Shown: one piece after another, positions 1,605-41,739 of the stretch | Numbering within the stretch: the first letter of the stretch is position 1 | How the letters are laid out: each line of letters opens with the position of its first letter | Assembly (NCBI GenBank): GCA_964580765.1 | Contig: CAZOKW010000004.1 | Span: forward strand, 1-41,739 | Direction of reading: 5' to 3' | DNA length: 41,739 bases | DNA from: an uncultured Candidatus Saccharibacteria bacterium | GTDB lineage: Bacteria; Patescibacteriota; Minisyncoccia; 2-02-FULL-40-12; IGHO2-12-FULL-4 | Position numbers and translations under genes: made by a program | Notes under the pieces: model-generated | Seen by the model: the letters and a program-made list of their open reading frames with translations, nothing else | What the model was told of the DNA's origin: nothing | The model's database searches: none

Positions 1605-2456
1605 ATGATTGATTTCAAAAATCTCAAAAAGCCGTATTTAATAGCCGAAATCGGCATTAACCATAATGGCGATTTGGAGATTGCCAAAAAACTGATAGAT
1701 GCGGCTCATGCTTGTTCTTGGGACTGTGTTAAATTCCAAAAAAGGAATCCCGATGTTTGTGTACCTGAAGATCAGAAAAATATTCCAAAGGATACTCCTT
1801 GGGGCAAAATGACTTACTTGGAATACAAAAAAGTTTTAGAATTTGGAAAGAAAGAATACGACTACATAGCCAAATACTGTCATCAAAAGCCAATTGACTG
1901 GACGGCATCGGTTTGGGATCTTGATAGTTTGGATTTTATCAAGAAATACGACGTTCCGTTTATTAAAATTCCTTCCGCTCATCTTACCAATCATAAACTG
2001 CTTAAAGCGTCAGCCCAGACCGGAATTCCGATCGTGGCCTCTACCGGCATGAGCACCCTTAAAGAAATTGATGAAGCCGTCGCTATTCTCAAAAAACATG
2101 CTTCCCAGTTTGTTTTAATGCATTGTAATTCGGCCTATCCGGCTAAGATTGACGAGTTAAACTTAAAGGTTATTCCCGCGCTTCAAAAAAGATACAAATG
2201 CCTAGTTGGTTATAGCGGCCATGAATTTGGTTTGACCACTACTACCGCCGCTATGGTTTTGGGAGCTAAAATAGTGGAAAGACACATTACCCTTGACCAC
2301 ACTATGTGGGGAACAGATCAGTCGGCTAGTATTGAACCTAGTGGTATGGATAAGTTTCATAAACAGGTGAGCGAGATGACCCGTTCTCTTGGTGACGGCA
2401 AAAAAAGGGTTTACGAGACCGAAATGGCTGTCAGAAAAAAATTAAGGGGCGCTTAA
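1605..2456 (+). CDS. neuB: N-acetylneuraminate synthase (NeuB) family protein, no C-terminal SAF/AFL domain
   Basis: IAEIGINHNGD, CVKFQKR, KIPSA, STGMS, LMHCNSAYP, GYSGHE, VERHITLD, GTDQSAS; 283 aa. Confidence 0.9.
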   Translation: MIDFKNLKKPYLIAEIGINHNGDLEIAKKLIDAAHACSWDCVKFQKRNPDVCVPEDQKNIPKDTPWGKMTYLEYKKVLEFGKKEYDYIAKYCHQKPIDWTASVWDLDSLDFIKKYDVPFIKIPSAHLTNHKLLKASAQTGIPIVASTGMSTLKEIDEAVAILKKHASQFVLMHCNSAYPAKIDELNLKVIPALQKRYKCLVGYSGHEFGLTTTTAAMVLGAKIVERHITLDHTMWGTDQSASIEPSGMDKFHKQVSEMTRSLGDGKKRVYETEMAVRKKLRGA

Positions 2457-2468
2457 ATACTATGGGAA

Positions 2469-2780
2469 GCGAGCTTGGTGAATATTGCTTTTTCCGGACG
2501 CAAGTTTGCTTCCAGCGAGCAAACTCGCTCATTGCGGTCTGTGGATTCGGAAAGAATTAAAGTAAAAGTCTTTACTTTAATGAACCTTGATTAATTCTTT
2601 CCGTCCAGCTCGTCACTTTTTCATCTTATTCGAAAACGAATGGGCTGAAAAAGTGACTCGCGAGCAATCTACCATCAGAATACCCCAAAGGGGTAAAATA
2701 GTAGATGAGATGCAGACAAGTTTTACTTGTCTGTCCCCACAGCCCACAGAGCCTTCAAAAGCAATATTCACCAAGCTCGC
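2469..2780. repeat. Branched structured element, family I copy A (putative ncRNA or ssDNA mobile element)
   Basis: Perfect 24-bp terminal inverted repeat GCGAGCTTGGTGAATATTGCTTTT (2469-2492/2757-2780) enclosing several hairpins; shares CCAGCGAG, CTGTGGATTCGGAAAGA and CATCTTAT..ATGGGCTG with copy B. Confidence 0.8.
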
Positions 2781-2790
2781 GGCCATACTT

Positions 2791-2819
2791 TTGACAAATC
2801 ATGTTTTTTTCTTTATCGT
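2791..2819 (+). promoter_or_regulatory. Putative sigma70 promoter of SDR-epimerase pair
   Basis: TTGACA-17 bp-TATCGT; AGGAG SD before ATG 2858. Confidence 0.5.
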
Positions 2820-2857
2820 ATTAGACAATCAGTTGTTCCTTAAAATAAGGAGAAGAA

Positions 2858-3691
2858 ATGAGTGTTTTAGACAAGTTCCGACTGGATGGAAAAGTTTGCG
2901 TCATTACCGGCGGGGCCGGATTATTGGGTATTCAGCATGCCGAGGCGATTCTCGATGCCGGCGGTAGGGTGGTCCTGATTGATATCAATGAAGCAAAATT
3001 GGCTTCGGCGGTGTTAAGTCTGTCCGCCAAATTGACAGGCCGGGCTAATAGAATTTGCGGATATCCTTTTGATATCACTGATGAGGAAGCGGTTCTTTCT
3101 GGTGTGGCTCGAATATCGAGAAACTTCGGTTCAATAGATATCCTTATTAATAATGCCGCCAACGACCCAAAACTGGAAGACGGTGGTAAAAATCTGACCC
3201 GTTTGGAAAATTTTCCAATGCAAGTTTGGCAGGACGACTTTAATGTGGGTGTAACCGGTGCATTTTTAATGAGCCGGGAAATCGGCCAAAGAATGGCTAA
3301 AAACGGCAGAGGAGTAATTCTGAATATCGCTTCTGATTTGGCAGTGGTTGCTCCGGACCAGAGAATCTATCGACAAGAAGGACTTGCCGAAAATGAACAG
3401 CCGGTCAAACCGGTGAGTTATTCCGTGACCAAGCATGCTTTGATCGGGCTGACCAGATATTTGGCTACTTACTGGGCCAACAAAGGAGTGCGGGTTAACT
3501 CTATTTCTCCTGGCGGGGTTTCTAACCATCAGCCGGAGGAATTTGTAGCCAAGCTGACGAATTTAATTCCCATGGGGCGGATGGCCGAAGTTGATGAATA
3601 TAAGGCGGCCGTTTTATTTCTTTGTTCAGACGCCTCGTCTTATATGACCGGCGAGAATTTGATTATTAATGGAGGGCGGACATGTTGGTAG
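2858..3691 (+). CDS. SDR-family oxidoreductase (resembles PtmA-type SDRs of nonulosonate loci)
   Basis: TGGAGLLG, NNAA, YSVTK catalytic motif, VRVNSISPGG. Confidence 0.85.
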   Translation: MSVLDKFRLDGKVCVITGGAGLLGIQHAEAILDAGGRVVLIDINEAKLASAVLSLSAKLTGRANRICGYPFDITDEEAVLSGVARISRNFGSIDILINNAANDPKLEDGGKNLTRLENFPMQVWQDDFNVGVTGAFLMSREIGQRMAKNGRGVILNIASDLAVVAPDQRIYRQEGLAENEQPVKPVSYSVTKHALIGLTRYLATYWANKGVRVNSISPGGVSNHQPEEFVAKLTNLIPMGRMAEVDEYKAAVLFLCSDASSYMTGENLIINGGRTCW

Positions 3692-4536
3692 AAAACAAAA
3701 AACATTCCATTGGGGTGATGCAGGGCCGGCTGACTCCTCCCAAAGGCAGGGGAATCCAGTTTTTTCCTTTTGGGGAATGGGAGGAGGAGTTTGAAAAAGC
3801 GGCGGAACTTGGTTTGGACGAGATTGAATTTATTTTTGACCTGGAGCGCTACGAAGAAAATCCCTTGTGGACTGACAATGGTGTTTTCAAGATTAACGAC
3901 CTTAAAAATTGTTTTGAGGTACGCATAGACCATGTCTGCGCGGATTTTTTTATGAGGCGGCCATTTTTTAGGGTCAAAGAAAAAATCAGGCAGGAAAATG
4001 TTGAAATTTTAAAAAAGATTTTATTTCATGCCCACGCCATCGGCGCTAAAGATATTGAGATACCACTTTTAGACCATTCTTCTGTAAATAACGCCGAAGA
4101 AATGGATTTGTTGTGTAGATCCATTTGCGAATGCTTGCCGGTTGCTCAATATCTTGGTTTGTCTATTTCTTTGGAAACTGACTTGCCACCGAGAAGATTC
4201 CGGCAGTTACTGCAAAGATTTCCTAAACATTTGATTGGAGCGGTCTATGATAGCGGGAATAGTTCAGGACTGGGCTATGATCCTTTCCAAGAGGTTACTG
4301 TTTTGAACAAGTTTATTAAGAATATCCACATCAAAGACAGAGTTTTAGACGGGGATACCGTTCCTCTGGGAACCGGTTCAGCCGACTTTGGTCAGTTGTT
4401 TAGAGGATTACAAAAAATTGGTTATCAAGGAGGTTTTACCCTTCAGGCGGCCAGAGGGGAAGAGGGGAAAGAATCCAAAAACATCCAAGAACAACTAGTT
4501 TTTTTGAAAAGATTAATATCGGGCTACTTGACCTAG
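3682..4536 (+). CDS. Sugar-phosphate isomerase/epimerase (xylose isomerase-like TIM barrel; hexulose/ribulose-phosphate 3-epimerase-like)
   Basis: IGVMQGRL N-terminus, SLETD, YDSGN, HIKD, VPLGTG metal-binding motifs. Confidence 0.8.
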   Translation: MLVENKKHSIGVMQGRLTPPKGRGIQFFPFGEWEEEFEKAAELGLDEIEFIFDLERYEENPLWTDNGVFKINDLKNCFEVRIDHVCADFFMRRPFFRVKEKIRQENVEILKKILFHAHAIGAKDIEIPLLDHSSVNNAEEMDLLCRSICECLPVAQYLGLSISLETDLPPRRFRQLLQRFPKHLIGAVYDSGNSSGLGYDPFQEVTVLNKFIKNIHIKDRVLDGDTVPLGTGSADFGQLFRGLQKIGYQGGFTLQAARGEEGKESKNIQEQLVFLKRLISGYLT

Positions 4537-4561
4537 CCAGCGACATAACGCTGGTTTTTTT
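4537..4561 (+). terminator. Intrinsic terminator
   Basis: CCAGCG-acataa-CGCTGG + T7. Confidence 0.75.
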
Positions 4562-4658
4562 ATTTAAAAATATAAGTGGAAACAAGTCAATATTGATTTT
4601 ATCTTGTCTTTTGCTTTGATTAGGCAGACGATCTTTTAAATTCCAAAGGAGTTTTGCG

Positions 4659-5540
4659 ATGGTGAAAATAGGTGATAAAACCGTTGGTCATGACCAGCCG
4701 GTTTTTGTTACGGCGGAAATAGGCATTAACCATAACGGAGACATGGCCGTAGCAAAAAAACTCATTGATCTGGCGGTTTTGGCCGGCTGTGACGCCGTCA
4801 AATTCCAAAAAAGAACAGTCGAGGTGGTTTATACGCCTGAAGAGTTGGCTAAGCCAAGGGAAAATCCCTTTGGTCCGACTAATGGGGATTTAAAGCGGGG
4901 ACTAGAATTTGGTCGAGAGCAGTACGAGGAAATATCCTACTATTGTTGTCAAAAGGAGATACTTTGGTTTGCTTCTCCATGGGACGAAGAAAGTGTTGAT
5001 TTTCTGGAGGAGTATAATCCGCCTTGCTATAAAATTGCCTCGGCTTCCCTGACTGATGATGGACTCTTGCGCCACATCCGGAGCAAGGGCCGGCCGATTA
5101 TTCTTTCTACTGGGATGAGTGACATGGCGATGATCCGGCATGCGGTGGCGGTGCTGGGACATGTTGATCTTGTTTTACTTCATTGCACCAGCGTTTATCC
5201 AAAAGTCGGCTTGGACTCAACCAATAACCTAAGTTTTGTTAATTTAAAAGTAATAGATGAATTGGGCCACCGTTTTCCTTCCGTGCCGATTGGTTTTTCC
5301 TCTCATTTTAGCGGAATTATGCCGGTCTATGCGGCGGTGGCCAGAGGTGCTTGCATGGTGGAATTTCATATCACTCTGGAACGGTCCATGTGGGGCAGTG
5401 ACCAGGCCAGTTCTCTGGAGTTTCAGGAGTTCAATGATTTATGCCGGATGATCCGCGAACTGAAAATCGCCGAAGGCGACGGGATCAAAAGAATTTATCC
5501 CGAAGAAGAAGCGGTCATGAAAAAGTTACGCAGGAAGTAG
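4659..5540 (+). CDS. neuB: Second NeuB-family synthase, no SAF/AFL domain
   Basis: AEIGINHNGD, AVKFQKR, YKIASAS, LSTGMS, LHCTSVYP, GSDQASS; AAGGAG SD. Confidence 0.9.
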   Translation: MVKIGDKTVGHDQPVFVTAEIGINHNGDMAVAKKLIDLAVLAGCDAVKFQKRTVEVVYTPEELAKPRENPFGPTNGDLKRGLEFGREQYEEISYYCCQKEILWFASPWDEESVDFLEEYNPPCYKIASASLTDDGLLRHIRSKGRPIILSTGMSDMAMIRHAVAVLGHVDLVLLHCTSVYPKVGLDSTNNLSFVNLKVIDELGHRFPSVPIGFSSHFSGIMPVYAAVARGACMVEFHITLERSMWGSDQASSLEFQEFNDLCRMIRELKIAEGDGIKRIYPEEEAVMKKLRRK

Positions 5541-5549
5541 TCAGATTAC

Positions 5550-5575
5550 CAGGGTTTACAAACCCTGTTTTTTTT
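5550..5575 (+). terminator. Intrinsic terminator
   Basis: CAGGGTTT-ac-AAACCCTG + T8. Confidence 0.8.
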
Positions 5576-5603
5576 GGTATTTTATATCAAATTATATCTG
5601 TTC

Positions 5604-5824
5604 GGCTTGATGCATAAGCGTTCCTTCAGGTCGTTCCGCCGCTTTCCAGCGAGCGGCTCCACTCGCGATGAAGCTGTGGATTCGGAAAGAGTCAAAGAAA
5701 TATTATACTCTTTCCGACCCAGGAACTGCCTTTTCCATCTTATGCTTAGCATGGGCTGGAAAAGGCAGTTCCTAAGCAATCCACAACTTCAGAGCGTCCT
5801 TCAGGGATGCATATGCATCAAGCC
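5604..5824. repeat. Branched structured element, family I copy B
   Basis: Closing arms GGCTTGATGCATA/TATGCATCAAGCC; GCCGCT-ttccagcg-AGCGGC hairpin; TCGGAAAGAGT/ACTCTTTCCGA; perfect 17-bp AGGAACTGCCTTTTCCA/TGGAAAAGGCAGTTCCT. Confidence 0.8.
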
Positions 5825-5843
5825 CCCATGATTAAATTTGCAA

Positions 5844-6007
5844 GCAGACTAAAGATATTGTTGCCTCAGAGGCGCTGTGGACTGTGTGATTGCATGGTTT
5901 GGACGAAGTATAATTTTTTCACTTCGGACAAAATCCACAGGCCACGGCGAGCGTAGCGAATCGCTGGTGAGCAAGCGTCCGAAGAGGCAATAGTATCTTT
6001 GGTCTGC
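5844..6007. repeat. Branched structured element, family I copy C (inverted relative to A/B)
   Basis: 24-bp closing stem (5844-5867/5984-6007, three G-T wobbles); reverse complement reads TCGGACGC..CCAGCGA..CTCGC..CTGTGGATT..CCACAG like A. Confidence 0.7.
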
Positions 6008-6056
6008 CGTAGAAAGGTTTTAAATAAAATGCCAACATACTTAACTAAATAAGTCT

Positions 6057-6803
6057 ATGAAAATCTATGTCATCATTCCCGCCCGGAGCAACTCCAAGGC
6101 GGTGGTCTCCAAGAACATAAAAATGCTCAAAGGTTTTCCTTTGCTGGCTTATTCTATCGCCGTTTCCAAACTGATTAAAAAGGTCTCCCGGGTGATTGTC
6201 TCTACTAACTCTCCGGAGATTGCCGAGCTGGCCAAAAGATACGGGGCGGAGGCGCCATTTTTGAGACCGGCCCAATTTTGTAAGGACTCCTCAAATGATT
6301 TGGACGCCATCGGGCATGCCTTAAGATGGCTGGAAGAAAATGAAGGCCAAGTTCCCGATTTGGCCGTTTATTTAAGACCATCTACTCCTTTAAGAGATTC
6401 TCGCCTGATAGACAAAGCCATTGCCAGTTTAGTTAAAAATCCCAAAGCCACCTCTTTACGCTCGGCCCACATTTTAGCGGAACCGCCTCATAAAATGTTC
6501 CAACTCAACAAAGCCGGTTTTTTTACGGGATTTTTTCCTAATTACCCAAAGCCGGAGTATCATGGTATCCCCCGTCAGCTTTTTCCCCAGGCCTACCACC
6601 CCAATGGCTATGTTGATATTGTCAGAAGCGATTTTATAAAAGCCAGCCAATATAAACTTTGCTTTGGGGAGAAGATACTGCCTCTGATTACTCCTATTGT
6701 GACGGAGATAGATTTGCCGGAGGATTTTGAGTATCTGGAGTATCAGATCAACAAGTTTGGCAGTCCGCTTCTTGATTTTTTAAAGGCCAATTTTAAAACA
6801 TAA
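6057..6803 (+). CDS. neuA: CMP-nonulosonate synthetase / acylneuraminate cytidylyltransferase
   Basis: IPARSNSK..KNI, VSTNS, PFLRP, LRPSTPLR, PRQ, PNGYVD, EID. Confidence 0.9.
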   Translation: MKIYVIIPARSNSKAVVSKNIKMLKGFPLLAYSIAVSKLIKKVSRVIVSTNSPEIAELAKRYGAEAPFLRPAQFCKDSSNDLDAIGHALRWLEENEGQVPDLAVYLRPSTPLRDSRLIDKAIASLVKNPKATSLRSAHILAEPPHKMFQLNKAGFFTGFFPNYPKPEYHGIPRQLFPQAYHPNGYVDIVRSDFIKASQYKLCFGEKILPLITPIVTEIDLPEDFEYLEYQINKFGSPLLDFLKANFKT

Positions 6804-6804
6804 A

Positions 6805-8196
6805 ATGTCTAACTATCAATTTTTCTTAAAACCAAAAAAAGTTTCGCCAGTGCAAACAAGATTCAGGAAGATAGGAACAAAAATTCCATCGCCGGAGACC
6901 GTAAAAATAATTCACGAAGCCGAAAAATATGGTTTGGATTTGATGTCCGGCCAGTTGCCGGTGGCTTGGGATAAGGCGATTGATTTTAATGTTTTCGATA
7001 AATCGGGCAATAAGTGGATTGACTTTACCTCCGGTATTTTTCTGGCCAATGCCGGGCATGCTAATCCCCAAATTAAAAAAGCTATCGATAGTCAGTTAAA
7101 AGCCGATCTTCTTCACGCCTATAACTATCCGACAGAAATAAAAACCCGCTTCCTGAAGAAACTTATTTCCCTGTCTCCAAAGTCGTGCCACAAAGCGCTT
7201 TTATTCGCTACTGGGGCTGAAACCACAGAGGCCTCTATTTTGATGATGCGAACGCATGGTCAATTAAAAAACAAAAACAAGATTGGCATCATTTCTTTTC
7301 GGGGTAGCATGCATGGCGCGACCATGGGAGCGCGGATGCTTCAGGGCAACCAAAAAATCTTGGATATTTATGGTTTCTCTGATCCAAACATTTTTCATCT
7401 GCCTTTCCCTTATCCTTGGGAAGCAAAGAGCAAAAATTTTGACTGGACGGCCAGATTTAAAAATGATCTGAAAGAGTTAGAAAAAAGGGGAATGAAGGTC
7501 AAGAATCTTTGCGGTTTTATGGTTGAGTCCTTCCAGGGATGGGGGGCGTTGTTTTATCCCCAGACCTATATTAAAGAGCTGGCGAAGTTTGCGGAAAAAA
7601 ACAAAATACTGCTGGCTTTTGATGAGATCCAAAGCGGCTGTGGCCGGACGGGCAAAATGTTTGCTTTTGAGCATTATGGAGTTACTCCCGATCTGATTTG
7701 TCTGGGCAAGGGTTTAAGCAGTAGTTTGCCCCTTTCAGCCGTGGTTAGCCGGGGGGAGATTATTGATTTGGCCGAGGTGGCTGATTGTGCACACAGTACT
7801 CATTCCGGTAATCCGTTGTCTTGCGCCGCTGGTTTGGCCAACCTGGAGGAGTTGCAGTCGAAAAACTTAATCAAAGAATCGGAAAGAAAGGGTAAGATTC
7901 TTTTGGCTGGATTAAATGAGCTGAAAAATAAATTTCCAGATAGAATTTCTTACGTTTTTGGAAAAGGCCTGCTGGCGGCTGTTTTATTTAAAGACCCAAA
8001 AACCGGAGAACCGGAGGGTGAATTTCCCAGCCGGGTTTGCGAACGGGCTATGCAGAAAGGATTGCTTCTGGTTCATACCGGCCGCGAATCAATCAAAATC
8101 GCTCCACCGCTGACTATACCTAATGATGCTCTTAAAGAAGGAGTTAAAGTTTTGGAAGAGTCAATTTTTGAAATTGAACAAGAAACCGGCAAATAA
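6805..8196 (+). CDS. Class-III PLP aminotransferase (paralog of 142-1509)
   Basis: DFTSG, DEIQSGCGRTG, PDLICLGKGLS, THSGNP; same N-terminal extension (V.T..R.I.TK.P.PE) as first copy. Confidence 0.9.
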   Translation: MSNYQFFLKPKKVSPVQTRFRKIGTKIPSPETVKIIHEAEKYGLDLMSGQLPVAWDKAIDFNVFDKSGNKWIDFTSGIFLANAGHANPQIKKAIDSQLKADLLHAYNYPTEIKTRFLKKLISLSPKSCHKALLFATGAETTEASILMMRTHGQLKNKNKIGIISFRGSMHGATMGARMLQGNQKILDIYGFSDPNIFHLPFPYPWEAKSKNFDWTARFKNDLKELEKRGMKVKNLCGFMVESFQGWGALFYPQTYIKELAKFAEKNKILLAFDEIQSGCGRTGKMFAFEHYGVTPDLICLGKGLSSSLPLSAVVSRGEIIDLAEVADCAHSTHSGNPLSCAAGLANLEELQSKNLIKESERKGKILLAGLNELKNKFPDRISYVFGKGLLAAVLFKDPKTGEPEGEFPSRVCERAMQKGLLLVHTGRESIKIAPPLTIPNDALKEGVKVLEESIFEIEQETGK

Positions 8197-33689: not shown

Positions 33690-35621
33690 ATGACAATGCT
33701 CCAGAAAAAACTTCTAGGTTCAGTCGCAGCGGTATTATTCACGATACCGCTTTTTGTTTACCCCGAGTTATATCGAGGGGTTTTCATCCAATCTGCTAAA
33801 GCGGCCACCACGGTAGACGGTTACAGTCCGCAGTCCTTTTTCATCAGCAGTGATTATGAATTCAGCGGCCGCACCCAACTCCAAGCTACTTTACGGGTGG
33901 AAGGGGAAAAGGCCAAGTTTTTTATTGATGACGATTACTGGTTTGCTCGCGATTCTTCGGTTCAACAAGTGATTAGACAGCAAGTGCTCAAACTGGCTGA
34001 AGAATTTGATACGCGAATTTATCCGTTAGAAACCGCTTTCTGGGGACAAGAAAATATTCCCGGTGTAGACAATGATCCAAAAGTGGTAGTGCTATTGGCC
34101 AATCTGATTGATACGGCGGGAGGATATTTTGATACCGCCCATCAATTTTCCAAAACAAAATTTCCGGATTCCAATGAAAAAGATATGGTCTATTTAAATA
34201 TCCGGTCTTTGCGTAATGAGAAAAGAGGGTTTGCTTTTTTAGCCCATGAATTTCAACATCTCATCGCTTTAAATCAAAAAAATCTTCTGCGCCGCGCCGA
34301 TGACGACATCTGGTTAAACGAATTGCGTTCGGAATACTCTATCTCCCTGCTTGGTTATAATGATCTCTATGCCGATTCCAATCTCAAAAGAAGGATGATA
34401 TCTTTTTTGGGCGAACCATCGGATAGTTTAACTGAGTGGGGCAATCAAGCGGCCGATTACGCCCAAGTGGTTTTTTTTGGCGAATATTTGACGGAGCATT
34501 TTGGCTCTAATCTTTTGAAACAGTCCTTGCATTCCGGTTTGGATGGTATTGCTTCTTTGGAACAAGTTTTGCGGGATAACGGTTACCAACTTAATTTCGG
34601 AGATGTTTTTTTGCGCTGGTCTGCGGCTAATGTTTTAGGCGATCTTTTGTTGGGCAGCGACTACGGTTATTTCCGGGAAGGATTACGGCAGGAACTGCGC
34701 GTTCCCGCCACCCGTACCATTGCCGGTCTTAGCGAGAATGCCGGTTTTTCCCTGACCGAGGCCTTCAAAGATTGGCAGACCAAATGGATTTGGATTACGG
34801 ATATTTCCAGAGGAACTAAAAATACGCTGAAAATAAATTTTAGCGGAGAGAAGGAGGATTTTTTCCGCGGAACCGTTATTAGTTTTTATCAAGATGGCCG
34901 GCGGGAAGTGAAATTTTTTGATTTAAGCCAGCCGGGACCGGGTGATTTATTTTTCGATTTTAATCTCGGTACGCCCGGACAAGGATTGGAGAAAATAATT
35001 CTTCTTCCGGTGAAAATGGAAAAGAAAAATAACTTTACAGATAAAGAACCTTTGTCTGATTTGACGATTAAACTGGAGAGAGTTTTGTCGGTTTCTTTTC
35101 CTCTGCCAACTCCCACTCCAAATTTGACTCCCATCACTACTCCCAGTCCCGCTATCCAACTAAACATACTTGCAGTTCGGCCGGCTGATTTTGGTTTGCG
35201 GGAGGGCGATTTTATCAGAGCGGAAGGGGATATTGATGTCTATATTATTAATGACTTTGGATTTAAGCGCTTAGTTTTAAATCCGCAGATCTGTCTTTTA
35301 TACGGCCATTTAAGCACCCGCACTGCTCTGCGAAGTACTTCGCTACGCAGCACGAGTGGTTGTTTTGGGGCGGTCAAGGTCGTTTCACCCCAAGTACGGG
35401 ATGCTTTTAAGACCTCTTTGTTTTTTACCGACGGAGAAAATAAAGATGGACGCATTTATTTTTTAGAATTAACCGGAGAGGATAGCGCTGTCTTGCGTTT
35501 TATAAATATGTCCGGAGACGATTTTATTCGGCAAGGCGGAAATTTTTCCTCCGTGTTTCTTTTTAACACTCGCGAAAAAAATACTTACCCCTTAGGAGAG
35601 AACATCAGAAAGCTAAACTAA
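33690..35621 (+). CDS. Secreted/surface zinc metallopeptidase (M30/M6-like HExxH) with Pro/Thr linker
   Basis: N-terminal signal/TM, GYF, AHEFQH zinc motif, WLNE third ligand, PTPTP linker, C-terminal domain. Confidence 0.7.
   Translation: MTMLQKKLLGSVAAVLFTIPLFVYPELYRGVFIQSAKAATTVDGYSPQSFFISSDYEFSGRTQLQATLRVEGEKAKFFIDDDYWFARDSSVQQVIRQQVLKLAEEFDTRIYPLETAFWGQENIPGVDNDPKVVVLLANLIDTAGGYFDTAHQFSKTKFPDSNEKDMVYLNIRSLRNEKRGFAFLAHEFQHLIALNQKNLLRRADDDIWLNELRSEYSISLLGYNDLYADSNLKRRMISFLGEPSDSLTEWGNQAADYAQVVFFGEYLTEHFGSNLLKQSLHSGLDGIASLEQVLRDNGYQLNFGDVFLRWSAANVLGDLLLGSDYGYFREGLRQELRVPATRTIAGLSENAGFSLTEAFKDWQTKWIWITDISRGTKNTLKINFSGEKEDFFRGTVISFYQDGRREVKFFDLSQPGPGDLFFDFNLGTPGQGLEKIILLPVKMEKKNNFTDKEPLSDLTIKLERVLSVSFPLPTPTPNLTPITTPSPAIQLNILAVRPADFGLREGDFIRAEGDIDVYIINDFGFKRLVLNPQICLLYGHLSTRTALRSTSLRSTSGCFGAVKVVSPQVRDAFKTSLFFTDGENKDGRIYFLELTGEDSAVLRFINMSGDDFIRQGGNFSSVFLFNTREKNTYPLGENIRKLN
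35315..35358. repeat. Palindromic insertion inside peptidase CDS
   Basis: CACCCG-ca-CTGC-tct-GCGAAGTACTTCGC-tac-GCAG-ca-CGAGTG. Confidence 0.65.
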
Positions 35622-35722
35622 AACTTTAAAAATAGATTGGAGGCGGAGGGGAACACTTTTTTTGAGCACCGTCGAATAAAAAAGTATGTTCACCGGAGCA
35701 TCCCAAATCTATTTTTAAAGTT
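35622..35722. repeat. Hairpin element family II, copy 1
   Basis: 66-bp core 35638-35703 identical to 36358-36423; outer arms AACTTTAAAAATAGATT/AATCTATTTTTAAAGTT. Confidence 0.9.
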
Positions 35723-35755
35723 ATCAACAAATTTTCTATTGTAATAAAACTTTTG

Positions 35756-35764
35756 TGCTATAAT
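35756..35764 (+). promoter_or_regulatory. Extended -10 promoter
   Basis: TGcTATAAT. Confidence 0.5.
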
Positions 35765-35894
35765 TAAATCAGTTAATTTATTTATTGTAGAAAATAATTG
35801 CAACAGTTTGGTCGGCTGTTGCAAAATTAAGGAGGGATAGCATTTAATTTTTTCTCTGCGAAGATAAAAAATTGAAGGCCTTACCTAATACACG

Positions 35895-35942
35895 ATGGCA
35901 GCCAAGAAAAAAAAAGGTGGAAAGAAGAAAAAGAGAATCTAA
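35895..35942 (+). CDS. Tiny Lys-rich peptide MAAKKKKGGKKKKRI
   Basis: 15-codon ORF between an extended -10 promoter and a strong terminator; not in ORF track. Confidence 0.45.
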   Translation: MAAKKKKGGKKKKRI

Positions 35943-35951
35943 CTTTTTCAC

Positions 35952-35982
35952 AACCCCCCGCAATTGCGGGGGGTTTGATTTT
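35952..35982 (+). terminator. Intrinsic terminator
   Basis: AACCCCCCGC-aatt-GCGGGGGGTT + TGATTTT. Confidence 0.75.
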
Positions 35983-36003
35983 GGGAGTATCTTGGGCTAT
36001 AAT
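35975..36003 (+). promoter_or_regulatory. Leaderless promoter of raiA/hpf
   Basis: TTGATT-17 bp-TATAAT, 7 nt before ATG 36011. Confidence 0.65.
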
Positions 36004-36010
36004 TTTCACT

Positions 36011-36349
36011 ATGAAATATATTCTACAGTCCACGAATACAACCATTTCCGACAGTATCCAGGCTCTGATTGACAGTAAAATTAAAGCCCTGGAACATTTT
36101 ATTTCCCGTTTTGATCCGGAAACGGTTGAAGCCAGAATTGAAGTCGGTAAGCCCTCCCGGCATCACCAGACGGGTCTGGTTTTCTATGCCGAGATCAACT
36201 TAAAAATACCCGGTAAACTTTTACGGGCAGAAGCCACTCATTTGGATTTGTTGTCGGCGGTCAACGAGGCCTTCAAAGAAGTTGAGAGGCAGGTTAAAGA
36301 TTATAAGGAGAAGATGATTACAAAAAATAAACCTCGGAAACAAATATAA
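36011..36349 (+). CDS. raiA: Ribosome hibernation promoting factor / ribosome-associated inhibitor A
   Basis: K...L..F, AEINL.IPG..LRAE, D...A.......ERQ...YK; adjacent to secA. Confidence 0.85.
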   Translation: MKYILQSTNTTISDSIQALIDSKIKALEHFISRFDPETVEARIEVGKPSRHHQTGLVFYAEINLKIPGKLLRAEATHLDLLSAVNEAFKEVERQVKDYKEKMITKNKPRKQI

Positions 36350-36352
36350 AAC

Positions 36353-36429
36353 TGGACTGGAGGCGGAGGGGAACACTTTTTTTGAGCACCGTCGAATAAA
36401 AAAGTATGTTCACCGGAGCATCCAGTCCA
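36353..36429. repeat. Hairpin element family II, copy 2
   Basis: Identical 66-bp core; outer arms TGGACTGGA/TCCAGTCCA. Confidence 0.9.
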
Positions 36430-36435
36430 ATCCTA

Positions 36436-39084
36436 ATGTCATTTCTTACAAAAATTTTTGGTGATGCCAACGAGCGCTATCTGAAGAGCGCTCGTTTACT
36501 AGTGGAGGAGATAAATAAATTTGAATCGCTATTCGAAAAGTTTTCCGGTGAGGAAATTAAAAACAAGACCGCTGATTTTAAAAAAAGAATTGTTGAAGGC
36601 GAGCATCTTGATCAAATTCTTCCCGAGGCTTTCGCTTTGGCGCGTGAAGCGGCTAAACGTACTGTCCGACAGCGTCATTATGATGTTCAGATCATCGGAG
36701 GAATTATTTTACATCGTGGTAATATCGCCGAGATGAAAACAGGAGAAGGAAAAACTCTTACCGCTACTTTGCCGGTTTATCTTAATGCTTTAACCGGCCA
36801 AGGCGTGCATGTGGTGACCGTTAATGACTACCTCTCCCGGCGCGATACGGCCTGGATGGGACAAGTTTACGATCTATTGGGGTTGTCCGTAGCCTGTCTA
36901 AACCATGATTCCAGTTATATTTACGACTCCGCGCATATCAACAAAGAGAAAGAAGAAGAGTTGGATAAAATACGGGACGAGCTTGGTAGTTTCAAAATAG
37001 CGCATGAGTTTTTGCGCCCAATTAGCCGACGGGAAGCGTATTCGGCGGATATTACTTATGGAACGAATAACGAATTCGGTTTTGATTATTTGCGGGATAA
37101 CATGGTTTTCAGTCAGGAGCAAAAAGTGCAGGCCAAAGGACACAACTTTTCCATTGTTGATGAAGTGGACTCAATTTTAATTGATGAAGCCCGTACGCCA
37201 TTGATTATTTCCAGTCCGGACAGCGACTCTACCAAATTATACGAGACATTTTCCAAAATAGTTCCACACCTTAAAGAAAACGAGGACTACAATGTAGATG
37301 AAAAACTCAAAGCGGTGACTCTGACGGAGAAAGGGATTGAAAGAGTGGAAAAGCAATTGGGGGTGGGTAATATTTATGAAGAAGGCGGAGTGCGCTATGT
37401 GCACCATCTGGAGCAGGCCTTGCGGGCGCAGGTTCTTTTTAAACTGGACCGGGATTATATAGTAAAGAATGGCGAGGTAATAATTGTGGACGAATTTACC
37501 GGCCGTTTAATGCCGGGCCGGCGCTGGTCCGATGGGTTGCACCAGGCGGTGGAAGCCAAAGAAGCCGTTTCAGTGCAGAAAGAGTCGCGCACCATGGCTA
37601 CCATTACTTTTCAAAATTATTTCCGTCTTTATAAAAAACTTTCCGGCATGACCGGCACGGCCGCTACTTCGGCGGAAGAATTTCACAAGGTCTACAATCT
37701 TGACGCGTTTATTGTGCCTCCGAATAAGTCATTTCAGAGAAAGGACCTATCGGATAGTATTTACAAAACAGAGGCAGGGAAATTCCGCTCTATTGTCAAG
37801 GAGATCAAACAGCGTCATGAACAAGGGCAACCTGTATTGGTTGGTACGGTTTCCATCGAAAAAAATGAGTTGTTGGCTAAAATGCTGGAGAGAGAAGGAG
37901 TCAAGCATCATATTTTAAATGCTAAAAATCATGAACGAGAAGCGGAAATTATCGCCCAAGCGGGAAAATTCGGCGCGGTGACGGTGGCGACCAACATGGC
38001 TGGAAGAGGGGTGGACATAATTTTGGGAGGGGCGCCGACTGATGCCCAAGAAGCAGAAAGAGTGTGTCAGGTAGGCGGGTTGCATGTTGTTGGTACAGAG
38101 CGGCACGAAGCGCGGCGGATTGATAACCAGCTTCGCGGACGGGCCGGCCGTCAGGGCGACCCTGGCTCTTCGCAATTTTTTGTTTCCACGGAAGATGAGC
38201 TGGCCAGAGTGTTTGGCGGCGATCGTTTGAAAAATCTGATGGATCGTCTGGGGGTGGGTGAAGATGATGCCATTGAGAACCGTTTCGTTTCCAAGGCCAT
38301 CGAGCAGGCGCAGGCCAAAATAGAAGGATTCCATTTTGATTCGCGCAAATATGTTTTGGAATATGACGATGTGATGAACCGCCACCGGACGGCCATTTAC
38401 GGTTTGCGTAACAAAATTTTATCCATGTCGGATAATCGGGAACTTTTTTCGGAGTATTTTGACTGGATAACTGGCAAATTAATTGAAGCCCACACTCAAA
38501 GTGTAACCGGCGAGTGGGGTACAGAAGAAATTGCTGAAACAATCAAAACTCTGACGGTCAGTGAAGAGAGTTTGTATCCCAAACTTATGGAGATTTCAAA
38601 ATCAGGCGACCGCACAATTTTAAAAACTTTTTTGCTTGATTTTATTTCCAAAGAACTGGAGAAAAAAGAGAAAGAACTGGGGGCAGAGCAGATGCGCCGT
38701 TTGGAGAATCTGGTTTTACTGCGGGTAATTGATGAACTGTGGGTTGACCATTTGGAAGCGATGGAATATTTGCGGGAATCAGTCCGTTTGAGGGCTTACG
38801 GCCAGCGCGATCCCTTAGTAGAATACAAAATCGAAGGCCAAAGAATGTTTGAGGAACTTTTGCAGAATGTCAAAATGCAAGCCGTCAATTTAATTTTCAA
38901 AGTCAGTTTTATTCAACAGCCTAAAGCGGTTAATATCCAAGAAGGCCGGGATAATTCTTTGACTGAAAGTTCCGAATCAGAGGAAAAATATCCCGCAGCG
39001 GATTTGTCAGAACCGAAAATTGGCCGAAATAACCCCTGTCCCTGCGGTTCCGGAAAAAAGTATAAAAAATGCCATGGGAAGTAG
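36436..39084 (+). CDS. secA: Preprotein translocase subunit SecA
   Basis: [60 protein letters not shown]-terminal [17 protein letters not shown]. Confidence 0.98.
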
Positions 39085-39502
39085 CATCTCAAGATATAAA
39101 AATGGGGTTAATTTTATTTTATTGCGAGACGATGGGAGAATTTTAATGCAGTTAAGGGATGGGGGAGGTGGAAGGGGAATTTCATATCCTCATACCTGGG
39201 CCATACCGGGAGCTCATATAGAGACCGGCGAAAGTCCTCTTGATACTGTTGTTCGGGAGATAAAAGAAGAATTTGATTTAAAGATGAAATCAGAACAGTG
39301 TCGATTTATTGTTGACTATGACCATGACAAGGTATGGCGGAGTAGCGTTTTTATTTGTAGGATTAATTCAGAAATAATTCCTAAAAAATACGAGGGGGCT
39401 GTGATTAAGTGGATGACTATAGAAGAAATTAAAAAATTAACTCTTGCTTGGGAGCAAGGAAAAATACTTTCTGAAGTCGAAGAAGCCATAAAAGTCCTAT
39501 GA
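39074..39502 (+). CDS. NUDIX hydrolase
   Basis: [22 protein letters not shown] Nudix box. Confidence 0.85.
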
Positions 39503-39729
39503 GAAATAAAATTATTGTCAGACCTCTTCTTTGGGGATTAATTGTATCCATAATCGGCTTGGCGGGGTGGTTTTTGTTTGTAATATTATCTGTGATTACA
39601 GGCGGAGCGTTTAGGGTGCTGGCCAACATTTTCGGCCGGATTATGCTTTTCGGTTTGCCGGCCGGAATAATCTGGGAAATCGTTCGGAGGATTAAGAGAT
39701 CCATAAAACATCATGGAGGAAAATATTAG
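39499..39729 (+). CDS. Small membrane protein, hypothetical
   Basis: Two hydrophobic segments; ATGA overlap with upstream gene. Confidence 0.6.
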   Translation: MRNKIIVRPLLWGLIVSIIGLAGWFLFVILSVITGGAFRVLANIFGRIMLFGLPAGIIWEIVRRIKRSIKHHGGKY

Positions 39730-40153
39730 AGAATTCATCAAAGAAGTTTTGGACAAAGGATACTTGATGAGTTTGGCTACTATTGATGATGGCGGAGTTT
39801 GGGTGGCGGATGTAATTTATGTTTTTGACGATCAGTTTAATATTTACTGGATATCCGATCCGGAAGTTAGGCATTCAGAGGCTATGCTTAAAAATAATAA
39901 AGTGGCCGGAACAATAACTATTAGCGGACCAGGAGAGAATAATTTAGGAATCCAGTTTGAGGGATTGGTAGAAAAAATAGAAGAGCCAAGGTATGATTTG
40001 GCCAAGAAGCACTATACTAAAAGACAAAAACCGGAACCGGAAGAAACTGATGATGTGTTGCAAGGGGACTTCTGGTATGTTTTGAGACCAAGCAAGATTG
40101 AGTTGATTAATGAAAAGTTGTTTGGTTTTGAAAAAGAAAAGCTGGAATTTTAA
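39713..40153 (+). CDS. Pyridoxamine 5'-phosphate oxidase-like FMN-binding split-barrel protein
   Basis: MSLAT, W...V.Y, Y..S....RH, N..VA.TI, GIQ..G. Confidence 0.75.
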   Translation: MEENIREFIKEVLDKGYLMSLATIDDGGVWVADVIYVFDDQFNIYWISDPEVRHSEAMLKNNKVAGTITISGPGENNLGIQFEGLVEKIEEPRYDLAKKHYTKRQKPEPEETDDVLQGDFWYVLRPSKIELINEKLFGFEKEKLEF

Positions 40154-40201
40154 GAAATAAAAAAGGCCTTTTGGGGCCTCAAGCGGTAGATATTTATGGA
40201 C

Positions 40202-40510
40202 CTATAAATCTGGTCCTGGGGGGTGATTATATCGTACGCGTGCCTCTCCGGCGCGTATCTCAATCTTTGATATCTTGTTCGTGTTAAAAGCAAAGCTAAT
40301 CCTTATAACTTCTATGTCTGTGAATCTTACAGAAACTTGTGGGTCGTTATATGATTTTCCAACAAAAGTAATATGGTCATGGAAAAGCTTAATATTGGTT
40401 ACGCCCCGAAAGATATCTCGTTGTACCCTTCCACCAGAATTTGGAAGTTGAAAAATTAAAACTGTTTTATGGTGTTTTAACAAATTATAGATCATCCCAA
40501 TATTTCCCAT
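40202..40510 (-). CDS. Hypothetical protein
   Basis: 102-aa ORF with GGGA SD and downstream hairpin at 40164-40179; no recognisable family. Confidence 0.45.
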   Translation of the reverse strand: MGNIGMIYNLLKHHKTVLIFQLPNSGGRVQRDIFRGVTNIKLFHDHITFVGKSYNDPQVSVRFTDIEVIRISFAFNTNKISKIEIRAGEARVRYNHPPGPDL

Positions 40511-40594
40511 GTTTGGTTCCCTGCTTCCATTTTCAAAAAACTAGTTTTTTTATATTATTTAAAATAGTGACAAAAGTCAACAAATAAATTCAAT

Positions 40595-41077
40595 ATGGAT
40601 CACGTGGCTATAATGAAAAAATCCTGGGGACTGACAGAAAAGATTTTGAGCGGAGAAAAAAAGATCGAGTCGCGCTGGTACATGGCCAGATCTGCTCCTT
40701 GGAATAGAATCAAAGCCGGAGAAACGGTTTATTTCAAAAACTCCGGAGAGCCAGTGACTATAAAAGCGACAGTGGCAAAGGTTCTTCAATTTTCCGATTT
40801 GAATCAGGACAAGGTTTTGGAGATTTTAAAAAAATATGGAAAAGATATCGGCATCTCGAGAGCCCTCGGGGGACATAGTTTTTGTCTGCAAGTTTTCGCA
40901 AAAACTGTCCCCACTCGGTCTCTGGATGCTTTACATCTTTTTAAAAACAAGAAATACTGCCTTTTGATATTTTTAAAAAATCCCGTTAAGATTAAACCAT
41001 TCCAGATTGATAAAAAAGGTTTTGGAATGATGTCGGCTTGGATTTCGGTTGATTCAATAAATAAAATAAAAAAATAA
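40595..41077 (+). CDS. ASCH/PUA-like domain protein containing an in-frame hairpin insertion
   Basis: H.AI....I.SG.K.IESR......P...I..G..V.FK motif. Confidence 0.75.
   Translation: MDHVAIMKKSWGLTEKILSGEKKIESRWYMARSAPWNRIKAGETVYFKNSGEPVTIKATVAKVLQFSDLNQDKVLEILKKYGKDIGISRALGGHSFCLQVFAKTVPTRSLDALHLFKNKKYCLLIFLKNPVKIKPFQIDKKGFGMMSAWISVDSINKIKK
40851..40929. repeat. Hairpin element family II, diverged inverted copy inside ASCH CDS
   Basis: GCATC/GATGC, GGGGACA/TGTCCCC, AGTTTTTG/CAAAAACT stems; reverse complement parallels the 66-bp repeat. Confidence 0.65.
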
Positions 41078-41142
41078 CTTGAATTATTTCTTCTTTTATA
41101 TAAACTAATTGAATAGTACTTTTAATAGGAAAACAAAAACAC

Positions 41143-41634
41143 ATGGCAAACGAATATCATCTTTACGAAATTGTTATTACGGCGATTGTGGTTAAAAAGG
41201 GTAAATATTTAATTACCCGGCGGTCAATGACCAAGAAAAGATTTCCCGGAATGTGGACCGTGCCGGGAGGGCATTTGGATCCGGCGGACTACGAGAATAC
41301 TCCCAAAGAATCCAAGGATTATTGGTACAATGTTTTAGAAAAGGCGCTGGCGCGGGAATTGCAGGAAGAGGTGGGGATTAAGGTTAAAAATGTGGAATAC
41401 ATTACCAGTTTGGCCACAGTGCATGGCGACGGTCCAAATTCCTTAGTAATTTCCTGTATTGCCGATTATGTTTCCGGAAAAGTTATTTTGCATGACGGGG
41501 AAAATGACCAGTACGCGTGGGTTTCTCTGAAAGAATCCAAGAAATATCCCTTGATTGGAGGCATTTTTGAAGAATTGTATGTGGCGGAACAGAATAGAAA
41601 AGGGAGGAAGGTAAAGTGGAAACAGTTATCATAG
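41143..41634 (+). CDS. NUDIX hydrolase
   Basis: FPGMWTVPGG, ALARELQEEVG. Confidence 0.85.
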   Translation: MANEYHLYEIVITAIVVKKGKYLITRRSMTKKRFPGMWTVPGGHLDPADYENTPKESKDYWYNVLEKALARELQEEVGIKVKNVEYITSLATVHGDGPNSLVISCIADYVSGKVILHDGENDQYAWVSLKESKKYPLIGGIFEELYVAEQNRKGRKVKWKQLS

Positions 41635-41739
41635 CTTGTTGTAATACCCCTTCGGTCGTCAGAAATCCCAGCGAGATTTCTGACTCGCGCAAAGTTGCTC
41701 GCGTTGTCAAGAGCCCTGTCAGAACAGGGTCGTTGACAA
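41635..41739. repeat. Branched structured element, family I copy D (truncated by window end)
   Basis: TTCGGTC, GTCAGAAATC-CCAGCGA-GATTTCTGAC, TCGC, then TTGTCAA..CCCTG/CAGGG..TTGACAA hairpin. Confidence 0.65.

Follow-up and report, generated by a model that had tools for sequence, protein, structure and literature searches.

Several described classes of bacterial repeats and structured RNAs share individual traits with the elements reported here, four of which lie in a 41,739-nucleotide stretch of DNA from an uncultured Candidatus Saccharibacteria bacterium (contig CAZOKW010000004.1 of assembly GCA_964580765.1; the whole stretch is called ‘the window’ below). The ERIC (or IRU) and Correia (NEMIS) sequences of enterobacteria and Neisseria are long imperfect intergenic palindromes of 100-160 base pairs (bp), near-simple in structure, with conserved termini and target duplications. 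REP sequences are single hairpins of 20-40 nucleotides (nt) that carry a conserved 5′ tetranucleotide and are mobilised by RAYT transposases. The attC sites of integrons span about 55-140 nt, follow cassette open reading frames (ORFs) in arrays beside intI, and have conserved R and L boxes at the base of their stem. The RNAs OLE, ROOL, GOLLD, raiA and HEARO are all Rfam families and are mostly single-copy or tied to particular genes, whereas Y RNA and YrlA bind a protein through a conserved module on the closing stem and carry a variable ‘effector’ module on top.

None of the conserved-loop hairpins of the window is free-standing; each forms the P3 helix in the basal three-way junction of a strongly folded intergenic element of 160-310 nt. 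Together with relatives in other genomes, these elements make up an apparently undescribed family of large, structured, modular, multi-copy intergenic elements in Patescibacteria, and the hairpin is its most widely shared piece. Like ERIC and Correia sequences, the family is multi-copy and intergenic, occurs in either orientation, is co-transcribable, keeps its arms complementary and includes possible RNase III targets; unlike them, it combines its 160-310 nt length with a multi-branched fold, invariant junctions and loops, variable termini, modular distal domains and no target duplication. With REP, BIME and REPIN sequences it has in common a hairpin that would be recognised as a structure plus a short conserved sequence, and frequent inverted pairs (here four of four are tail-to-tail), but in this family that hairpin is a single arm of a large junction within a 160-310 nt unit, and no RAYT-like gene was seen in the window or the related loci. 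As in attC, a single strand would fold, structure and a few unpaired bases are conserved, the stem sequence is free and the terminal structure is variable. An integron site was nevertheless rejected on the grounds of the 160-310 nt length, the housekeeping and polysaccharide genes alongside with no integrase, and a stem base, P1, that is the variable part. The size class, strong covariation, invariant junctions and lineage restriction recall OLE, ROOL, GOLLD, raiA and HEARO, yet the family has no Rfam match, is multi-copy in both orientations, and includes variants that share only a base module. Finally, a closing stem that bears a conserved module, a variable module on top and several paralogues per genome are traits of Y RNAs, from which the family differs by having no Rfam Y RNA match, no Ro or Rsr gene nearby in the sequences seen, and different conserved sequences.

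A search with the 4227 models of Rfam 15, which include riboswitches, ribozymes, OLE, ROOL, GOLLD, raiA, HEARO, Y RNA, IS605-orfB and group I and II introns, gave no match at gathering thresholds over the whole window. At permissive thresholds (E<=10 over 2400-6100; E<=1 over 35500-41739 and the ten related loci introduced below) only chance-level matches were obtained, none on the elements save weak matches of microRNA models on P6 of element B. Element B had no blastn match among plasmid and phage records, and full-text literature searches on noncoding RNAs and repeats of Patescibacteria and the candidate phyla radiation found no description of such an element. In the available part of its text, the TIGR-Tas report (PMC12045711) deals with short guide arrays, and the available part of another (PMC11270868) with insertions inside rRNA genes only.

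The first-pass annotation of the window had reported hairpins at three sites (A, B and D) and a weaker version at a fourth (C), and all of its strings are found in the window where it had placed them. Positions 2503-2530 (A, plus strand) read AGTTTGCT-TCCAGCG-AGCAAACT-CGC, in which the hairpin itself occupies 2503..2525 with an 8-bp stem and CGC lies at 2526-2528. Site B (5638-5666, plus strand) reads GCCGCT-TTCCAGCG-AGCGGC..CTCGC, with a 6-bp hairpin at 5638..5657 and CTCGC at 5662-5666, and site D (41658-41688, plus strand) reads GTCAGAAATC-CCAGCGA-GATTTCTGAC-TCGC, with a 10-bp hairpin at 41658-41684 that is followed by TCGC. The C stem is indeed weaker: on the minus strand, 5947-5967 gives CCAGCGA..CTCGC, which lacks a proper stem and has only one pair beside the core.

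Scanning the window against shuffled sequence, as the first-pass annotation had proposed, gave a divided answer. A hairpin of at least 6 bp around a CC.GCG loop occurs three times against 0.93 expected, and 72 of 1000 dinucleotide shuffles reach three, so the hairpin alone is not significant. When CGC is also required within 10 nt downstream, three occurrences stand against 0.08 expected and none of 1000 shuffles reaches that number. The bare 8-mer CCAGCGAG is likewise found three times (0.61 expected; three or more in 1 of 100 shuffles), and the hexamer pattern occurs 73 times on both strands. One unrelated occurrence of CCAGCG lies in the stem, not the loop, of a terminator-like hairpin at 4535-4556.

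The hairpins are located near the 5′ end of folded elements that almost fill their intergenic gaps. Element A (type 1, or T1; 2469..2780, plus strand) is 312 nt long and is closed by a perfect 24-bp P1 stem (2469-2492 with 2757-2780), the two arms of this outer inverted repeat being 100% complementary. Its P5 and the 3′ strand of its P4 contain inserted hairpins beyond those of its relatives. Its minimum free energy (MFE) is -145.8 kcal/mol (z = -13.2 against shuffles), and it matches the family hidden Markov model (HMM) at E = 1.2e-45. Element B (type 2, or T2; 5588..5840, plus strand) begins right after an intrinsic-terminator-like site at 5550-5577 and has a well-paired core at 5604-5824, with imperfect outer pairing out to 5588-5840 (MFE -128.7 kcal/mol, z = -11.1; family HMM E = 2.8e-49). 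Long invariant blocks beyond the hairpin are shared by A and B. Element C (short C-type; 5844..6007, minus strand) is 164 nt long and lies tail-to-tail with B across a gap of 3-19 nt. It retains a CCAGCG...CGCTCGCC module without the P3 stem, and its AGCG has the following CGCT as its sole possible partner. This element folds with z = -4.6 on the minus strand and is matched by the family HMM at E = 3.3e-06 and by the module HMM at 9.8e-06; the complementary plus strand folds far better than the motif strand (-80.5 versus -58.8 kcal/mol). Element D (D-type; 41636..41739, plus strand) is cut by the end of the window and has an approximate 5′ boundary. It matches the module HMM at E = 6.6e-08, and 41642-41691 is 96% identical over 50 nt to 1729-1778 of related locus L009, which belongs to a complete D-type copy.

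Relatives were retrieved by scanning 596 Gb of genome contigs with an exact 17-mer from the A/B core. Because this 17-mer lies outside the hairpin, the hairpin can be judged in the retrieved copies without circularity. The scan returned 90 loci, when about 70 would be expected by chance from an arithmetic estimate, and full elements are present in ten of them (blastn and family HMM, E 1e-52 to 1e-65). The other 80 loci match the 17-mer only and served as a negative control of 285,423 bases. The ten loci come from five metagenome-assembled genomes (MAGs), all labelled as Patescibacteria or unclassified: JAUYPS01 (four loci), the Yanofskybacteria JACOZX01 (two) and JACPNK01 (one), CAYZNJ01, labelled Saccharibacteria (two), and the Paceibacterota DATDTF01 (one). 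Similarity searches within these loci added C-type relatives at L009 3330-3475 and L022 2165-2328 and D-type relatives at L009 1726-1853 and L029 193-376. The resulting set holds 18 copies from six genomes, namely 12 T-type (nine T1 and three T2), three C-type and three D-type. A profile of the base module recovers all 18 copies at E<=1.1e-4, with the next match at E=0.18; exactly four of the copies are in the window, and none is in the 80 control loci.

The anatomy of the family was derived from the alignment, an RNAalifold consensus, single folds and inspection. A long closing stem of about 19-33 bp (P1) leads to a short helix (P2), usually GG/CC. Two T2 copies have AGG/CCU here and the third has AGU/ACU, a difference that amounts to one compensated change. 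The strand between P2 and P3 is ACGCUCG in T1 and UCGUUCC in T2. P3 is the conserved-loop hairpin with CC-N-GCG in its loop, and it is followed by a P3/P4 junction strand that reads CU(U)CGCU in T1 and (U/C)(C/U)CACU in T2. P4 leads to the distal domain and ends in CUGUGGAUU/AAUCCACAG at a second three-way junction, from which emerge P5 (CGGAAAGA/UCUUUCCG) and P6, the latter with an invariant mismatch and two invariant U.G pairs. The variable helices lengthen by insertions at their tips, as they do in A.

All variants have in common a base module of the form ..CUUC(N)GG(N)CG.., then P3 with its CC-N-GCG loop, then ..CGC... Distal domains differ: T1 and T2 carry the P4-P5-P6 junction with its invariant blocks, C-type copies are shorter and retain P1, the module and a short P4-P5, and D-type copies retain P1, P2 and P3 beneath different hairpins. 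Only the P3 module is thus present in T1, T2 and D alike and persists as a remnant in C, and for this reason the terms ‘recognition site’ and ‘functional core’ that the first-pass annotation had attached to it are reasonable readings.

Within P4, the invariant sequence TGTGGATT/AATCCACA (2541-2548, 5676-5683 and the P4 partner strands) agrees at seven of nine positions with what we take to be the DnaA-box consensus; neither dnaA nor dnaN lies near the elements that bear it. The P5 loop has a conserved AUUAUAC, which is TATAAT on the complementary strand, in most T-type and all three C-type copies as judged by eye (e.g. 5690-5712 and 5905-5925). A promoter was considered for this sequence and rejected, as there is no -35 element and, by inspection, the direction suits only about half of the neighbouring genes.

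The P3 stem changes in sequence and stays paired. Fifteen of the 18 copies have a stem of 6-10 bp, with at least 6 bp beside the loop, and the three C-type copies have one pair. Ten different 6-bp stems occur among the 15, with two to five types of pair at every position. All 60 stem positions compared are paired within their own copies, a proportion that falls to 53.5% when arms are exchanged between copies; exchanged arms pair fully in just 3 of 90 combinations. Among the 12 T-type copies, six of the eight P3 pairs have changed on both sides. Covariation extends through the whole T-type structure, in which 94.4% of cells are paired (85.1% in shuffled alignments) and 22 pairs are doubly changed (12.3 when shuffled); none of 500 shuffles reaches either value, and slid controls give 4-11 doubly changed pairs. 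The P1 arms covary as well, with 88 of 100 positions paired within a copy and 67% across copies, in the five of 12 T-type copies, all T1, that have complete alignable ends. The description of P3 as a freely covarying stem, unrelated in sequence but paired, was therefore right about covariation and too strong in the word ‘freely’, given that the 5′ arms are mostly pyrimidine-rich.

The core of the loop, CC-N-GCG, is present in 18 of 18 copies, those of the window and the additional ones alike. The loop had been called an invariant CCAGCGA, which overstates the case because base N, the fourth in the commonest loop TCCAGCG, varies; in the 12 copies that were found independently of the hairpin it is A nine times, U twice and G once. 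The A after GCG belongs to the stem, as its first base, in some copies and to the loop in others, and two copies have G or T there. Among stemmed copies the hexamer floats within a loop of 6-8 nt (TCCAGCG in eight copies, CCAGCGA and TCCTGCG in two each, and TTCCAGCG, CCAGCGT and CCGGCG in one each), a pattern that argues for read-out of sequence and not for a fixed loop geometry.

On these grounds we tentatively favor, at somewhat less than even confidence, a model in which each element is a folded single strand, most likely RNA, whose P3 loop serves as a sequence-specific docking site for a trans-acting partner. The strand would probably be co-transcribed with its neighbours or produced beside them. 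The P3 stem would be a mere spacer that presents the hexamer in its 6-8 nt loop, and the loop would be read sequence-specifically by the partner, most likely a protein that all variants share. The downstream CGC would form part of the junction or of the base of P4 and would have no role in switching. The unrelated gene neighbourhoods, the lack of grouping by genome (both described below) and the absence of an Rfam match count in favor of this model too. In it the family is probably mobile, its copies having the character of old paralogous or mobile lineages and not of recent duplicates. Structure, covariation, loop conservation, distribution and the lack of an Rfam match are direct results, whereas RNA in preference to single-stranded DNA, the trans-acting partner and mobility are inferred.

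Several observations weigh against the docking-site model. The sample is small and biased: its 18 copies come from six genomes, the 12 T-type copies all had to contain the exact 17-mer, and the motif was part of the similarity by which the six C- and D-type copies were found. No partner protein emerged from the analysis, and a comparison of base N with all T-type alignment columns found no cis partner for the P3 loop. Perfect stems of 24-33 bp would, as RNA, be substrates for RNase III. The choice of strand and molecule is a further difficulty. Of 13 copies compared on both strands, 11 have their lower MFE as the reverse complement, with a mean advantage of 8.0 kcal/mol and one of 18-22 kcal/mol in C-type copies. 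Mismatches in P1 on the motif strand are A.C in 21 cases and G.U in 15, counted in an over-extended alignment that also holds 77 other mismatches, and G.U is no commoner than A.C at variable positions. In C-type copies all P1 mismatches are A.C on the motif strand. The sole strand-specific feature is the pair of invariant tandem U.G pairs in P6, which belongs to the motif strand. An assignment of strand by the MFE of both strands and by counts of G.U and A.C was abandoned, since the outcomes were contradictory. All three C-type copies are antisense to the neighbouring ORFs and the opposite strand folds better, so the strand opposite CCAGCG may be the one that folds in this type. One alignment column (160, an unpaired U of P6) had been considered as a cis partner of base N and would pair in 11 of 12 copies, but it offers one informative change only and was judged too weak.

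An unlikely but serious alternative is that the family is a non-autonomous mobile element at the DNA level, similar to a miniature inverted-repeat transposable element (MITE) or REPIN, in which the hairpins form in single-stranded DNA and a transposase or recombinase whose gene lies elsewhere in the genome recognises or cuts the P3 loop. Examples of such an enzyme would be an HUH/Y1 protein of the IS200/IS605-RAYT type and a tyrosine recombinase that acts on folded sites. Much of the distribution suits this proposal. The elements are multi-copy and intergenic, with four copies in 41.7 kb, and at non-syntenic sites they lie sense or antisense to genes or between divergent genes, in either orientation. 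Their neighbours are unrelated housekeeping genes (RseP, ProRS, MetRS-like, TatD-like, RuvA, UvrB, adk, SecY, NeuB, SDR and NUDIX, some named by eye). A maximum-likelihood tree resolves subtype clades (support 88/99 and 92/94) and does not gather the copies of one genome, as evident by eight changes of genome label on the tree, where the minimum is five and the shuffled mean 7.6. The closest relatives are in another genome: B is 85% identical over 184 nt to the copy in locus L019, and the nearest relatives of both B and the D fragment lie at unrelated loci of JAUYPS01. A comparison of synteny or of presence and absence found no homologue of any window protein in the related loci. These observations favor old paralogous lineages, mobility or transfer, and do not suggest recent local duplication.

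Adjacency can also be read in favor of DNA mobility. Eight of the 18 copies form four adjacent pairs with gaps of about 3-20 nt, each of a T-type with a C- or D-type copy (B/C at 5588-6007, L009 1726-2086, L022 1932-2328 and L029 1-376). All four are tail-to-tail, for which an arithmetic estimate gives a chance of about (1/4)^4 under random orientation. This arrangement places the P3 module at both outer ends, much as terminal inverted repeats would be, and the lack of an excess of G.U over A.C also fits DNA. However, six T-type copies stand alone. No direct repeat that could be a target-site duplication flanks the P1 ends in 13 of 13 copies inspected by eye, and the ends themselves lack conserved bases: the terminal 10-15 nt differ between copies, over 20 nt, the 5′ arms of five T1 copies are on average 56% identical even with their shared inner 8 nt included, and the module lies about 25-35 nt inside the ends. 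Copies in the same genome are not near-identical. No transposase was found in the window or in the ten related loci, nor was a reverse transcriptase found near the copies there, and the 38 ORFs of the window include no transposase, integrase or reverse transcriptase. Moreover, a 220-nt multi-branched build with invariant junctions, bulges and tandem U.G pairs far exceeds what hairpin-binding transposases are known to need. A MITE in the strict sense was rejected, because the terminal inverted repeats are not common to the copies, there is no target-site duplication, and copies from one genome fall into different subtype clades.

An extension of the docking-site model, which we consider doubtful, would make the family a modular RNA class. 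Here the shared P1-P2-P3 ‘handle’ with its CC-N-GCG loop would recruit one common protein or machinery, and the interchangeable distal domains (T1/T2, C and D) would do different jobs; alternatively, the handle would make the RNA mobile and non-autonomous by way of its folded single strand.

The first-pass annotation had also suggested that GCGAG can pair alternatively with the downstream CTCGC, and a two-state switch or pseudoknot in which GCG(AG) alternates between P3 and (CU)CGC, for instance as a regulatory switch, is possible but unsupported, and we regard it as improbable. In 16 of 18 copies a CGC complementary to the GCG of the loop does occur within 20 nt. The sole support for the second state comes from the three C-type copies: without a 5′ arm of P3, they can pair AGCG with the next CGCT across a loop of 3-4 nt and have no other hairpin available. 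The invariant core of 3-4 bp is uninformative, and the flanking pairs show several breaks and not a single compensatory change. For the first stem base and its partner the combinations are AT in 12 copies and GT, TT, TC and AC in one each, so that this inner A-T pair is retained in 12 of 16; for the second they are GC (seven), GT, AC and TT (three each), and where the stem base has gone from G to A the partner remains C in three of three cases. Loop base N and its partner read AT in ten copies, AG in four, and TG and TT in one each. The partner fails in two of the 18 copies, being absent from L029D and present only in a G.U-weakened form in L060T. The geometry is equally unfavorable. By inspection, the CGC of T2 copies pairs with GCG of the 3′ strand and is thus required for the base of P4. 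In T1 copies CGC lies inside the 6-7 nt P3/P4 junction, only 1-2 nt past a 7-bp stem, a spacing that, judged from the sequence, leaves no room for an H-type pseudoknot while P3 is intact. A switch would also be expected to hold a position relative to the genes it controls, unlike these elements, which have no fixed position or orientation. For the same reason, and because their neighbours are functionally unrelated, a riboswitch or other cis-regulatory leader was rejected.

It is highly improbable that the copies are decaying palindromic repeats with no sequence-specific function, in which covariation arises from templated correction by intrastrand template switching. Stems are often perfect (24 of 24 in A), mismatches show no strand bias and both strands fold, all of which such a process could produce. 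Correction cannot, however, hold loops and junctions constant, and it is the unpaired parts that are most conserved, as evident by CC-N-GCG in every copy, the invariant junction blocks and the invariant P6 mismatch with its tandem U.G pairs; moreover, the family is common to MAGs with different lineage labels. Least likely of all is a self-cleaving or otherwise catalytic RNA with its active or cleavage site in the P3 loop and junction strands: invariant single-stranded junctions around covarying helices, a compact three-way junction and a multi-copy distribution like that of ribozyme-bearing repeats would fit, but no Rfam ribozyme family matches at permissive thresholds, and the wholly different distal domains of T, C and D leave only a small base module.

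Other readings were set aside on simpler grounds. A retron noncoding RNA would account for the bounding inverted repeats, but there is no reverse transcriptase domain in the 38 window ORFs and, by inspection, no reverse transcriptase-like ORF beside the copies. An invertible promoter (‘inverton’) for element A does not agree with flanking repeats that differ between copies and an interior that is itself structured. A small ORF or type I toxin lacks a conserved start and a length periodicity; by eye, length differences in P5 are not consistently multiples of three, which speaks against coding.

The window itself is a chromosomal polysaccharide and nonulosonic-acid cluster together with hpf, secA and NUDIX genes, and contains no tRNA. 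Two pairs of paralogues are evident, of the NeuB family (1605-2456 and 4659-5540) and of class-III aminotransferases (76-1509 and 6805-8196). A NeuB copy lies immediately upstream of each of elements A and B, yet the two elements are of different subtypes. For one protein of the window that belongs to no Pfam family, the closest Atlas clusters are those of Yanofskyibacteriota and Minisyncoccota, which makes an origin of the window in a Patescibacteria genome very probable. In locus L019, an open-ended ORF at 3587-4015 (minus strand) that adjoins an aminoacyl-tRNA synthetase-like gene presumably carries a LAGLIDADG-like motif, as judged by eye.

A second, smaller repeat flanks hpf. Both copies of this 82-nt direct repeat (35622-35703 and 36342-36423; 94% identical) form hairpins some 85-95 nt long, with z -4.6 and -5.0, and the start codon of secA (36406) lies within the second copy. 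The core of the repeat is conserved, and its closing stem differs between the copies yet is paired in both, making it a second small element with a conserved core and a covarying stem; it has no Rfam match at E<=1. A tiny lysine-rich ORF of 15 codons, translated by eye, lies at 35895-35942 and may or may not encode a small basic protein; between it and hpf, just upstream of that gene, come a hairpin rich in G+C and a run of T.

The genomes of Patescibacteria are very small and gene-dense, and four elements of 160-310 nt in 41.7 kb therefore represent a notable investment. Their covariation, invariant junctions and modular build point to a candidate new functional RNA, or to a new route by which DNA or RNA moves between these genomes. 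The shared P3 loop offers a concrete handle toward the partner, and a covariance model of the family would annotate unexplained intergenic DNA in many MAGs. If the modular-handle reading were true, the elements would constitute a ribonucleoprotein or mobile-RNA system of a kind not described for the bacteria with the smallest genomes.

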